DNA of 48,445 nucleotides, taken from positions 1-48,445 of IMG/VR virus record IMGVR_UViG_2571042005_000001. One strand, given 5' to 3'. Each line of letters opens with the position of its first letter. The stretch's first letter is position 1. Below, piece by piece: positions 1-4,608 of the stretch. Under the pieces are notes generated by a model. It searched no databases, was not told the DNA's origin, and saw nothing but the letters and a program-made list of their open reading frames with translations. The position numbers and the translations under genes were made by a program. Origin of the DNA: a virus (taxonomy: Duplodnaviria; Heunggongvirae; Uroviricota; Caudoviricetes).

Positions 1-4
1 CCAG

Positions 5-70
5 AACAGAGACCTTTTTGTGTGATTCACCCCCTCAAACAGAGACCTTTTTGTGTGGTTTTCACCCCCT
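5..70 (+). repeat. Iteron-like direct repeats upstream of rep
   Basis: AACAGAGACCTTTTTGTGTG at 5-24 and 38-57 (33 bp period), each followed by TTCACCCCCT; array may continue beyond the window edge. Confidence 0.8.
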
Positions 71-1933: not shown

Positions 1934-2890
1934 ATGACCATCACCATCAGTTTTGCCGAGCGGAAGCAACTGCTCAGGACCTGCACCAATGCCTACGAGC
2001 TGGCGGGCCTCAGCATGGCCATGCTTGCCTGCGACCTCAGGCCCCTCGACAAATACGAAGAGCTGCCCTGCATGCTCGGGCGCACCGTCCGCAACGTCAT
2101 CAAAGGAGCCCAGCCGGTGCTTTCCGTATGTGCTGATGTAAGCAATTTGGAAGAATCAAAAGATTTCTTTGTTTCTGTAAGAGAGAAAAACAAAAACCGT
2201 ACATACCAACATACGGAAAGCATCCCCCAGGAGGACCGCGACCGCCTCCGGGACCTCTCCCAGAAATCCGGGGTGCGCCTCAGCCAGGTGTACGCCGCCC
2301 TGATCCGCCACGGCAACCCCCTCGACTTCCTGACTGGGCTTCTGCAGGACATTGCTGCAGCCCCCAGCTTCCAGAGGGTCATCAACGCCACTGGGCTTTT
2401 CGTCTCCCAGACCAAACTCGGGGAACGCCTGCAATTCCCTGCAGGGGTGCGCGAAGAGCAGGACCTGCAGGCCATCGAACAGCAAACGCAAGCGCTTGAA
2501 GCGCAGCGCAAAACCCAGAAACTCCTGGAGGATGCCGAGTGGCGTGAAGTCATCGGCGACACCCTGCTGGAAGGCATGACCGTGCGTTACCGGGGCGCGC
2601 AGTACACCCTCACTGCCCACCATGGTGATCACCTGACTTTGACCGGCTGGGACCAGGACGGTGAGTACCACGAGCAGGTTCAGCTCTCCGCCCTGACCCC
2701 CGGGAATTTCATGATTGTTCTTGCAGGCACTCCAGAGCCTTCCCTGCCTTCACCGGAGCCTGCACCAGCACCAGAAACACCCTTGGACATCGAGCGGGTG
2801 ATTCAGGAAGCCCTGAGTGCGGACCCCCTGACCGCGAAGTTCCTGAAGGGCCTGAAGCGCTCTGGAGGGGTGAAGGCGGCGCTTTCATGA
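1934..2890 (+). CDS. Hypothetical protein
   Basis: Long ORF (track 1892..2890); start placed at the ATG after GCAGGAA; no recognisable family. Confidence 0.7.
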   Translation: MTITISFAERKQLLRTCTNAYELAGLSMAMLACDLRPLDKYEELPCMLGRTVRNVIKGAQPVLSVCADVSNLEESKDFFVSVREKNKNRTYQHTESIPQEDRDRLRDLSQKSGVRLSQVYAALIRHGNPLDFLTGLLQDIAAAPSFQRVINATGLFVSQTKLGERLQFPAGVREEQDLQAIEQQTQALEAQRKTQKLLEDAEWREVIGDTLLEGMTVRYRGAQYTLTAHHGDHLTLTGWDQDGEYHEQVQLSALTPGNFMIVLAGTPEPSLPSPEPAPAPETPLDIERVIQEALSADPLTAKFLKGLKRSGGVKAALS

Positions 2891-2953
2891 AAGTGTTACG
2901 GATTTTCGGGTCTTTTTCGCCCATGAAGCCCTTTGAGGATTTATGCTGGAGGC

Positions 2954-3076
2954 ATGCGCCGATTCACGAAACACCTTTTGATCCTGTCCTTGCTGGCCGT
3001 CTCCTGCATTCCGACCGTTCACGCCCAAGTTCCGAGGCCACCCGGCAACTGCTCAGGCACCGGAAGTGGGTGCTGA
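2954..3076 (+). CDS. 40-aa secreted peptide precursor MRRFTKHLLILSLLAVSCIPTVHAQVPRPPGNCSGTGSGC (not in ORF track)
   Basis: TATGCT-6nt-ATG leaderless start; basic N-terminus, hydrophobic core, VHA-Q cleavage site; stop overlaps next ATG (TGATG). Confidence 0.75.
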   Translation: MRRFTKHLLILSLLAVSCIPTVHAQVPRPPGNCSGTGSGC

Positions 3077-3189
3077 TGAACGTCCAGAGAAACCCGGTGT
3101 GGGTGAAGCTGTGGCTGTTGGGGCTGTCCGCTCTGGCCCTGACAACCCTGCTGGGGCCTCCCGGCAACTGCTCTGGTGGGGGTTGCTGA
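3076..3189 (+). CDS. 37-aa hydrophobic peptide MNVQRNPVWVKLWLLGLSALALTTLLGPPGNCSGGGC
   Basis: Coupled start; shares C-terminal PPGNCSG..GC with the preceding peptide (DNA CCCGGCAACTGCTC in both). Confidence 0.75.
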   Translation: MNVQRNPVWVKLWLLGLSALALTTLLGPPGNCSGGGC

Positions 3190-3258
3190 AAGCCTTAGGC
3201 GACACCCCTTGACGCCCGAAAAACGTGTTTCAGAGAGGGTTTTTTGGTAGAATGGGTT

Positions 3259-4608
3259 ATGGTTGAGCATGCTTTGAAAACCCCTGAGCCTGTGAAAGAA
3301 AGGCCCCATTACCGCCGTTGGGCGGAGGTGCCGGAAGGACTGGTCACCAAAACCACCCTGAGACGGGAGGGCCTGAAGCCCGCCCCGAACCAGCAGCATG
3401 TGGCCACCGTGACATACGGGCCAAGCCGGGACACTGCCCTGCTGTACCGGCGCAGCGAAGCCGTTCCCAAAAAACCCCTCACCGAAGCCCAGAAAGCCGG
3501 AATCCTGAGGGCCCAGGAGACCCGGGCGGAAAATGAACGTCGGGCATACGAAAAAGAGTGGGCTCACCTGCAGGCCAGAGAGGAAGCCCGGCAGGCGCAG
3601 ATGGCTGAGGATTTCGAACGCCATTTGAAAGAAGCCCAACAGGAAGCCCTGCAGAACGTGCTGACTTTCCTTGAGCGTCACCCTCGGGACACCTGGCGGA
3701 TTCTGGACACCGAAACCACCGGTCTGCAAGGCGAGGTGATCAGCCTGAGCATCGTTGATGGGTACGGGAATGTGCTGTACGACCAGCTCCTCAGGCCCAT
3801 CCGGGATGAGATCGAGGAGGGTGCTTTCAGGGTGCACGGGATCCGGATGGAGGACCTGGAAGGCAAACCGTCATTCGCGGAGGTGTGGCACCTCGTTGAG
3901 CCCCTCTTGCGAGACAAGACCCTGCTGGCGTTCAATGCGGACTTTGATCGGGAGCGGCTGTATTACTCCCTGAGGCTCGACCCGAGTCCCTGCTGGCCGA
4001 AACCCACCCTTCTGGAGTGGGAGGGCCGGAACTCCTGGGTGTGTTTGATGCTGCTGGCCTCATCACGGCTGGGGTTCGTGAAGGAACACCGGGGGTACTT
4101 TGATGGGTTCTGGTGGTTGAAGCTCGACGAGGCCTGCTGGCGTGCAGCGATCACCCTCGGAAAGTTGCCCACCTTGAGGCCCAGGCACCAGGCCAAAGCG
4201 GACGCCCTGTCGTCCTTGGAGCTTTTGAATGACCTGCTGGAGCATGGGGCCAGAGAGCGGGACGGTCTGCCCGTGGAGCCTTTTTTGACGTGGCCGACTG
4301 CCGCTGAGGTGGAAGCGGCAGGGCTCGGGCACTGGGGCAGGGCATCATCGGCATGGCTGGAGATCACCCGAAAGGGTGCCGTGGTGGGCCGGGTGTTGTG
4401 GTGGCCAGTGAGCCGTTTGCTGCCTTGCTTCTGGGAGATGCACAAGAAACTCCCAGATCTGCCTTTTGAGGCGGTGCAGGCGTGGTGGACCGGGGCAGTG
4501 GAGAAAGCCCGGGCCTGCCAGCCGGGTGAGCTCGGTGAGTGCCGGCAGGTGATCGGAGAGTGGGGGTTCTCTCTGGACTGGTCCCCTGAACCCGAAGAAG
4601 AGGAATGA
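3259..4608 (+). CDS. DEDDh (DnaQ-like) 3'-5' exonuclease with N- and C-terminal extensions
   Basis: ILDTETTG, AFNADFD and HQAKADA motifs; TAGAAT-5nt-ATG leaderless start. Confidence 0.85.
   Translation: MVEHALKTPEPVKERPHYRRWAEVPEGLVTKTTLRREGLKPAPNQQHVATVTYGPSRDTALLYRRSEAVPKKPLTEAQKAGILRAQETRAENERRAYEKEWAHLQAREEARQAQMAEDFERHLKEAQQEALQNVLTFLERHPRDTWRILDTETTGLQGEVISLSIVDGYGNVLYDQLLRPIRDEIEEGAFRVHGIRMEDLEGKPSFAEVWHLVEPLLRDKTLLAFNADFDRERLYYSLRLDPSPCWPKPTLLEWEGRNSWVCLMLLASSRLGFVKEHRGYFDGFWWLKLDEACWRAAITLGKLPTLRPRHQAKADALSSLELLNDLLEHGARERDGLPVEPFLTWPTAAEVEAAGLGHWGRASSAWLEITRKGAVVGRVLWWPVSRLLPCFWEMHKKLPDLPFEAVQAWWTGAVEKARACQPGELGECRQVIGEWGFSLDWSPEPEEEE

Follow-up and report, generated by a model that had tools for sequence, protein, structure and literature searches.

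A tandem pair of small genes for probable exported peptides, concealed by the public annotation of a phage-plasmid replication region

The closest described counterparts of the locus examined here are the propeptides of RRNPP systems (Phr, AimP, PapR, NprX), which are small, carry an N-terminal Sec signal, hold their active part at the extreme C-terminus and occur on phages and plasmids near control regions. The known systems are described in Firmicutes and their mobile elements only, the large surveys having been confined to that phylum (PMC10075063), and their mature peptides are linear, without a conserved terminal Cys pair. Their five-criterion signature includes a Sec-secreted propeptide of 10-100 amino acids (aa; 21-50 aa where validated) and a receptor of 250-500 aa with tetratricopeptide repeats (TPRs), the two being neighbors at -50 to 191 bp (PMC10075063). 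We analyzed the 48,445-nt stretch at positions 1 to 48,445 of the virus record IMGVR_UViG_2571042005_000001, here called the window, which makes up the first 48 kb of the 112,445-nt contig C14 of a 5.08-Mb, 97%-complete genome. Near its left end lie two overlapping open reading frames (ORFs), ORF A and ORF B, whose products share a PPGNCSG..GC C-terminus. A first-pass annotation had singled them out from the sequence, and that observation is confirmed: the ORFs exist, are under purifying selection and carry export features. Very probably they encode real exported peptides and form a real two-gene cassette that annotation has missed. The elements of the locus are as follows, where pair 2 denotes a second set of coupled genes in the window, described below.

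2887-3189, plus strand: publicly annotated 100-aa ORF (P0007), whose ATG overlaps the stop of a 332-aa ORF (ATGA).
2942-2947, plus strand: -10-like hexamer TATGCT, 6 nt before the ATG at 2954; predicted leaderless-type promoter.
2954-3076, plus strand: ORF A (pepA), ATG at 2954, TGA at 3074-3076; 40 aa, MRRFTKHLLILSLLAVSCIPTVHAQVPRPPGNCSGTGSGC.
3036-3057, plus strand: repeat copy 1, GGCCACCCGGCAACTGCTCAGG, encoding ..PPGNCSG of ORF A; family D7.
3074-3078, plus strand: TGATG stop/start overlap, putative translational coupling of ORF A and ORF B; same junction in pair 2.
3076-3189, plus strand: ORF B (pepB), ATG at 3076, TGA at 3187-3189; 37 aa, MNVQRNPVWVKLWLLGLSALALTTLLGPPGNCSGGGC.
3155-3176, plus strand: repeat copy 2, GGCCTCCCGGCAACTGCTCTGG, encoding ..PPGNCSG of ORF B.

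The junction between the two genes, TGCTGATG, reads TGC-TGA-TG, with one A common to both. The reading frame of ORF B is that of the C-terminal part of the 100-aa ORF, and public collections hold for this region that product and its strain variant P0008 alone; the exact sequences of the four small ORFs of this pair and pair 2 are absent from the public protein collection queried. The pair was hidden, as the first-pass annotation had put it, and its preference for two coupled genes over one 100-aa ORF agrees with both the tails and the substitutions between strains.

What argues that ORF A and ORF B are translated? Three independent lines of sequence evidence support it: the tail repeat, natural variants and the start signal. 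The 22-nt repeat is 91% identical between its copies, with both mismatches on synonymous third positions, and contains a 14-mer, CCCGGCAACTGCTC, found exactly twice in the window (3041 and 3160). The tail codons are CCA CCC GGC AAC TGC TCA GGC ACC GGA AGT GGG TGC TGA in ORF A and CCT CCC GGC AAC TGC TCT GGT GGG GGT TGC TGA in ORF B. The two differ at four synonymous third positions, have one codon replaced and are set apart by an in-frame indel of 6 nt. Most synonymous sites of the tail repeat have changed while the peptide has been kept; for all four differences to fall on synonymous sites (~7 of ~30 sites), we estimate P ~0.001. Because the two copies stand in different genomic frames and yet preserve the peptide, each frame appears to be read and the tail to be the selected part, which bears out the proposal that the Cys-containing tail is the conserved, functional portion. 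The N-terminal halves have no recognizable sequence in common, and the PPGNC[S]G-coding pattern occurs in the 5.08-Mb genome at these two sites alone.

Natural variants point the same way. In run X2, a metagenome contig spanning 2600-3600 is 98.5% identical and free of indels. Its two changes in ORF A, at 2990 (TTG>CTG, Leu) and 3004 (TCC>TCT, Ser), are silent; the former, seen again in a third assembly (X6), is a radical Leu>Pro replacement in the frame of the 100-aa ORF. In ORF B, the change at 3098 is a conservative Val8>Ala and that at 3174 (TCT>TCG, Ser) is silent, as is a further change in run X3 at 3108 (AAG>AAA, Lys). Four of the five substitutions are silent (binomial P ~0.016 by our calculation, assuming that 25% of random changes are silent), and both ORFs are intact in three independent assemblies. 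A weaker point is that GC content at third codon positions is highest in the proposed frames (0.72 for ORF A, 0.81 for ORF B), like that of neighboring genes; codon-usage likelihood does not separate the frames of such short genes.

As for the start signal, a -10 motif 6-7 bp upstream of leaderless ORFs serves as their mRNA promoter in Deinococcus (PMC12340547; PMC4007540). Just 1.26% of all ATG triplets in the genome have a TANNNT hexamer 5-7 nt before them, and the same leaderless-type design (TAAACT-6-ATG, TACACT-7-ATG) recurs before pair 2, its paralog P0005 on contig C1 and its homolog P0006, three relatives whose coding status rests on homology. The leaderless start TATGCT-6 nt-ATG claimed for ORF A thus stands out from background and recurs where it can be compared.

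Export signals had been claimed for both peptides, and both appear to carry them when read by eye. In ORF A, an n-region MRRFTKH (+3) precedes a 10-residue h-region, LLILSLLAVS, followed by a lipobox-like LAVS|C (Cys18), a signal-peptidase I site, VHA|Q, or both. The product of processing would be 16-23 residues long. With the lipobox defined as [LVI][ASTVI][GAS]C after a charged n-region and an h-region, the putative box L-A-V-S-C fits the looser, PROSITE-type pattern. The tail, QVPRPPGNCSGTGSGC, has the form C-x6-C-COOH, its last residues being ..PPGNCSGTGSGC. ORF B has an N-flank MNVQRNPVWVK (+2) and then a 15-residue hydrophobic segment without an obvious cleavage site, from which we predict a membrane-anchored peptide that keeps its N-terminus inside and exposes its tail outside. 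Its tail, GPPGNCSGGGC, has the form C-x4-C-COOH, the peptide ending ..PPGNCSGGGC.

Relatives of the pair are scarce. A blastn search of 2600-3600 against plasmid and phage records found nothing, a word-indexed search with ORF A against a set of 5.8 billion proteins found nothing similar, and Pfam, NCBIfam, PHROGs and the ESM Atlas gave no match for the peptides. The PPGNC[S]G pattern, searched over 364 genomes of the phylum, has 39 matches outside this genome, and all 32 that were read in frame are off-frame noise inside GC-rich genes. The pair is lineage-restricted because nothing similar turned up in the plasmid and phage records, protein sets and phylum genomes searched. Conservation of the layout in relatives does not extend beyond near-identical strains, the motif pattern having been sought in those 364 genomes.

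A parallel comes from the genome itself. A scan for small ORFs with a signal sequence and a C-terminal Cys pair gave four more such ORFs, each directly behind a protein of ~480 aa. That family, with a TPR fold, is present in 3/3 genomes of the genus (3-8 matches each) and in 0/122 genomes of the family's other genera. At 14 of its 15 loci, the gene is followed at -3 to +55 nt by an ORF of 36-64 aa in the same orientation; the fifteenth is cut by a contig end. The loci are listed here, the first being that of the replicon itself.

TPR cassettes: G000 C14:108441-110051 (L052:4442-6052, minus), C26:24511-26164, C30:36188-37791, C13:13771-15380; loci L058-L071.

In the propeptides of these cassettes, a Sec or lipoprotein signal (again by eye) leads into a linker of variable sequence rich in Pro, Gly and Ser, and Cys is the last residue of the tail, with spacing C-x2-C in 12, C-x3-C in one and C-x6-C in one (n=14); boxes like that of ORF A occur in four of them (LSSC, FCSC, LVSC, LIAC). 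Apparent orthologs keep the signal sequence while their tails differ (..PAKPCTTC, ..PSQPCSGC, ..PLAPCGNC), which is the mode of divergence of pherotypes. The replicon's own cassette, whose 484-aa TPR-fold protein is encoded at C14:108600-110051, lies ~1.9 kb from a small helix-turn-helix (HTH), Cro-like switch gene and iterons, and ~5.3 kb from the pair across the circular junction. An AlphaFold2 (AF2) model of the TPR protein (predicted local distance difference test, pLDDT, 90.9) is confident and shows an all-helical repeat and, besides it, a small C-terminal domain; Pfam TPR models match the ~480-aa proteins weakly, and no HTH is found in the TPR protein. The cassettes have the gene order and spacing of RRNPP systems: measured against the signature of PMC10075063, propeptide size and adjacency agree, and the TPRs are recognized by predicted fold, not by profile hidden Markov model (HMM). 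As a separate observation, two tiny ORFs at C46:4773-4856 and C10:48811-48897, MRNKVPSPTFWWVSLVLLLDAGCSPMC and MKFFALWLAVLSVYNCLRARVNKWCSRC, also combine a hydrophobic N-terminus with a terminal Cys pair.

How does the pair compare with these cassettes? It shares their architecture: a Pro/Gly linker follows the export signal, the last residue is Cys, and another Cys stands no more than 6 residues before it. Its tails can be set beside theirs.

Host cassette C26: GPPTTGPCSGTC
C26 ortholog in sister species: GPPQPGGYCVGNTAGC
Replicon's own cassette: GGNPPGPCASC
ORF A: RPPGNCSGTGSGC
ORF B: GPPGNCSGGGC

They align as GPP..G.C(S/V)G..(G)C-stop. Two cassette tails, GPPTTGPCSGTC and GPPQPGGYCVGNTAGC, are close to those of the pair, and one has the C-x6-C spacing of ORF A. 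The pair differs in being a coupled tandem where each cassette has one peptide, and in not standing beside a TPR gene. We regard homology between pair and cassettes as suggestive. On these grounds we favor, tentatively and short of calling it probable, the reading that ORF A and ORF B belong, as orphan Cys-loop propeptides with a signaling role, to a repertoire of TPR proteins and peptides that is RRNPP-like and specific to the genus.

Several findings weigh against that reading or qualify the evidence in its favor. The score of ORF A against two cassette propeptides (56-59) is reached by 0/4000 region-preserving shuffles (~24, standard deviation ~5.5), but this null is lenient because all signal peptides have the same n-h-c order. 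In a phmmer search over 92,950 small ORFs of the genome, the similarity of ORF A stands at E = 1.3, rank 6, which is not significant, and a cassette-propeptide HMM scores it at E = 380, an HMM that itself recovered only 1/4 true cassette peptides. Although the propeptide size of the signature is matched (40 aa, 37 aa), no TPR gene adjoins the pair, which is flanked by the 332-aa ORF and a DnaQ-like exonuclease gene, so receptor and adjacency are both wanting; the 332-aa ORF has no TPR and no other family match, and the downstream regions of 13 of its distant relatives hold no secreted peptide. Because ORF B lacks a cleavage site, its release may never happen. Neither the other two species of the genus nor the 364 genomes of the phylum have the pair. 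On the receptor side, a VIA-align structure search speaks for the reading, with PlcR-PapR, AimR, a phage Rap with its peptide, RapI, NprR and ComR, besides MalT domain III, in the best 12 of 48,161 chains (Z 12-13); yet TPR solenoids match one another easily, and the tool itself rates Z ~13 as borderline where helical repeats are concerned. With the same model, Foldseek returned generic TPR and pentatricopeptide repeat (PPR) proteins alone, and two of 12 aligned TPR proteins (502 and 512 aa) exceed the 500-aa limit of the signature. Folded alone, the C-terminal domain resembles no recognizable DNA-binding or known fold (best Z 5.1); since it matches nothing, we make no DNA-binding claim for the TPR protein. 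Transcription of the pair has some support from a true RNA-seq library (X11), which has a 171-nt contig on 3003-3164 and nothing else of the kilobase, a contig-level match without strand information that could be DNA carry-over.

The peptide communication proposed in the first-pass annotation therefore stands in part: TPR cassettes do exist in the genus, one of them on the replicon ~5.3 kb away, while the similarity of the pair to their peptides is not significant. Its remark that the window holds no receptor is correct. The differences from the RRNPP systems of Firmicutes are also real, namely no adjacent receptor, an ORF B that looks membrane-anchored and local TPR proteins without an HTH.

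How would such orphan propeptides work? A leaderless transcript would start at or beside A2954, driven by the -10 element TATGCT. Ribosomes would make ORF A, stop at UGA 3074-3076 and, as the TGATG overlap suggests, restart on the overlapping AUG for ORF B. ORF A would be exported via its Sec- or lipoprotein-type signal and then either be released after VHA|Q or be lipid-anchored at Cys18, whereas ORF B would remain a signal-anchored membrane peptide with its C-terminus outside. Both would display PPGNCSG(x)nGC-COOH outside the cytoplasm, where the two cysteines could close a disulfide loop of 6 or 8 residues. The pair would represent extra, receptor-less copies of the genus propeptides that normally stand behind a cytoplasmic TPR-fold protein of ~480 aa, and would act as pheromone-like signals of the phage-plasmid. 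Their reader might be the replicon's own TPR protein, 5.3 kb off beside the Cro-like switch gene, or a host paralog. Processing, loop formation, receptor binding and any effect on lysogeny or copy number belong to the inferred part of this reading.

A wider proposal, which we rate as unlikely, is that this Deinococcus lineage and its 112-kb phage-plasmid use a previously undescribed peptide language of the RRNPP/arbitrium kind, with Cys-loop tails (C-x2-6-C-COOH) that a disulfide could close and HTH-less TPR readers. The phage-plasmid would hold three layers of it: a receptor-propeptide cassette beside the Cro-like switch, orphan coupled propeptide genes beside the replication origin, and poly-(G/P)CxxC proteins, possibly multi-copy propeptides or decoys. 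Peptide signaling through cytoplasmic TPR proteins, phage arbitrium included, has been described as a trait of Firmicutes, and a search of one literature library found no paper linking RRNPP systems to Deinococcus. Under the wider proposal this would be the first such system outside Firmicutes. If the Cys-loop peptides are signals, phage and plasmid communication reaches the Deinococcus-Thermus phylum, with a new chemical form of signal, a C-terminal disulfide loop, in a system directly testable with synthetic peptides of 10-16 residues.

The main rival to a signaling role is a non-signaling one in the envelope. ORF A and ORF B would then be real exported peptides acting as envelope accessory proteins of the phage-plasmid, for entry or superinfection exclusion, as a membrane toxin for post-segregational killing, or in redox or metal binding, and they could be minimal members of a phage-borne (G/P)CxxC family represented in the same window by pair 2. 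We think this improbable, though far from negligible. The members of the family are these:

27362-27607, plus strand: pair 2, first gene (81 aa), TAAACT-6-ATG; hydrophobic N-terminus, GPPKGCSSC ... PCNGC ... PCGYC-stop.
27607-28014, plus strand: pair 2, second gene, P0004 (135 aa); six (G/P)CxxC motifs, ends PCSMC-stop; coupled by TGCTGATG.
L056:7609-8013 (G000 C1:340608-341012), minus strand: P0005, in a prophage-like region.

The junction of pair 2 (27602-27609) is identical to that of ORF A and ORF B. Both its genes have hydrophobic N-termini, contain three and six (G/P)CxxC units and end in PCxxC-stop. P0005, a paralog of P0004 (E = 8e-11), has 134 aa and 7 CxxC, and P0006 (173 aa, L057:8001-8522), the sole outside homolog of P0004 (E = 2e-27; word-indexed search), lies on a 58.7-kb phage-plasmid-like metagenome contig that also encodes ParA, LPD29, a GH19 endolysin and a tape-measure protein. 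P0005 and P0006 alike have promoters of the form TTGACG ... TACACT-7-ATG. The homologs of the CxxC frame show that the public call at pair 2, the 215-aa P0001, was made in the wrong frame. On this replicon, standard gene callers have replaced at least four small leaderless genes with longer wrong-frame ORFs.

For an envelope role speak the common design of the two pairs, with the TGCTGATG coupling and leaderless -10 element on the same replicon, and the shared plan of a hydrophobic N-terminus followed by GPPxxC, with Cys as the last residue. Within ORF B, ..NPLWLVALTALLTLLLGPPKGC.. resembles the CxxC-family N-terminus ..NPVWVKLWLLGLSALALTTLLGPPGNC.., and its ..TTLLGPPGNC.. ranks 9 of 108,997 ORFs against an HMM of that N-terminus; the E-value of 1.7 is, however, not significant. 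The hydrophobic segment of ORF B has the look of an uncleaved membrane anchor, and a lipobox-like sequence is present in ORF A. The CxxC genes occupy variable 'moron' positions beside restriction-modification or methylase and lysis genes: pair 2 adjoins an MmeI-type restriction-modification gene (28052-30910, minus strand), and P0005 a methylase/Mrr-fusion gene and a GH19-like lysis module. The pair itself is located between RepA and ParA, in a maintenance region of the sort in which plasmids frequently carry killing or exclusion genes. On the other hand, the family proteins are longer (81-173 aa), with 3 to about 10 CxxC units and a terminal PCxxC, whereas each peptide of the pair has one loop, its cysteines separated by 4 or 6 residues, and a tail that is not PCxxC. 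Some CxxC 'codes' match host propeptide codes (PCSGC, PCGNC); composition can explain this, and we keep it out of the argument. As an observation in its own right, both pairs have an upstream box, TTTTTCGC(C/A)(C/A)ATGAA..CCCTT, at 2913-2934 and 27329-27350 (local alignment P ~0.01 by shuffling), which may be a common operator.

Within the envelope reading, the toxin option can be compared with known peptides. Type I toxins of the hok/sok kind are peptides of 35-50 aa with one hydrophobic helix, Hok having an overlapping upstream frame (mok), and entericidin A/B are a small tandem pair of lipoproteins. The pair resembles them in size class, single hydrophobic segment, location in a plasmid maintenance region and tandem or overlapping frames. 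It differs in that its exported tail, not the helix, is conserved: selection has acted on the tail, and the hydrophobic parts can no longer be recognized as alike, whereas a pore-forming type I toxin would be expected to show the opposite pattern. There is no Pfam Hok or Entericidin match and no Rfam match, such as to Sok-like RNAs, and the minus strand over the pair shows no promoter-like or terminator-like site of an antisense RNA, bearing in mind that Deinococcus promoters fit the sigma-70 consensus poorly.

Could the repeat instead serve as a DNA site, an operator or an iteron, or could the ORFs be decaying propeptide remnants without present function? A 22-nt direct repeat in a replication region would suit the former, and for the latter the pair is lineage-restricted, and a relative (assembly X6) whose DNA upstream of 3198 is unrelated shows that the cassette can be dispensed with. 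We consider both very improbable. The repeat has two copies only, 119 nt apart and none elsewhere, while the true iterons, AGAGACCTTTTTGTGTG, lie at the contig junction; the differences between copies sit on codon third positions, which a DNA-binding site does not explain; and the remnant version must face two ORFs intact in three independent assemblies. RNA folding over the pair gave no structure signal (z ~0). With two copies and no RNA signal, a DNA-level or RNA-level function is unlikely.

Ribosomally synthesized and post-translationally modified peptides (RiPPs) and agr-like cyclic thioesters had been brought up in the first-pass annotation, and neither suggestion is supported; we think either very unlikely. 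The Cys, Ser and Thr of the tail would be the modified core. The tails are indeed rich in Cys, Ser, Thr and Gly and always end in Cys, a C-terminal Cys is needed by AviCys-forming decarboxylases, and two paralogous cores recall multi-precursor clusters. Sec-type signals are, however, unusual as RiPP leaders. The 97%-complete genome has no match to AgrB (PF04647), and AgrD needs a recognition tail C-terminal to its ring, where the peptides of the pair have nothing after the last Cys. No MNIO/DUF692 gene is found in the genome, HFCD flavoproteins are on contigs C59 and C63 only, all 17 radical-SAM matches (17/17) are off replicon C14 and away from the cassettes, and a scan of window and cassette-flank ORFs for the named maturase families found no such domain.

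That the annotated 100-aa ORF (2887-3189), ATGA-coupled to the 332-aa gene, is real and ORF A a chance frame we hold to be most improbable: gene callers chose it, its ATG overlaps the upstream stop, its frame is open in P0008 and codon-usage scores do not separate the frames, but it takes the Leu>Pro change where ORF A is silent, synonymous changes keep the PPGNCSG..GC tail of ORF A in the other frame, it encloses a -10 element and a textbook signal peptide, and the analogous call at pair 2 (P0001) is demonstrably in the wrong frame. Its first 63 residues have no Pfam or NCBIfam match, and those 63 codons are probably not a gene.

The replicon that carries the pair is supported as a phage-plasmid, as first proposed, by RepA, ParA, a tail-fiber match and overlapping contig ends. 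The last 35 nt of C14 copy its first 35 nt (window 1-70; L052:8215-8446), and at least six or seven iterons, AGAGACCTTTTTGTGTG[G/A]TT, run across the end junction between the small HTH gene and repA. Given these overlapping ends and the iterons spanning them, the replicon is circular and ~112.4 kb in size. RepA lies at the following position:

161-1543: RepA, plasmid-type maintenance region.

After RepA come the 332-aa ORF, the peptide pair and the DnaQ-like exonuclease gene, with a TGT-like gene and ParA further on; the tail-fiber match and the MmeI-type enzyme are also within the window. A related-locus search with the 332-aa ORF over the genome contigs found none, and the exonuclease homolog in a sister species is not syntenic. 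Assembly X6 contains a relative whose exonuclease gene is ~95% identical but in which the 107 nt immediately before 3198 are unrelated. The pair thus ends at a recombination or cassette boundary, 9 nt past its stop codon, which suggests that it is a movable cassette.

Two minor observations concern the exonuclease gene. Its start is probably the ATG at 3259, not the TTG at 3244 (region 3219-3261), with an extended -10, TGGTAGAAT, 5 nt upstream (TAGAAT-5-ATG, leaderless-type; TACAAT in the strain variant). Just upstream lies an imperfect palindrome, GAAAAACGTGTTTC.

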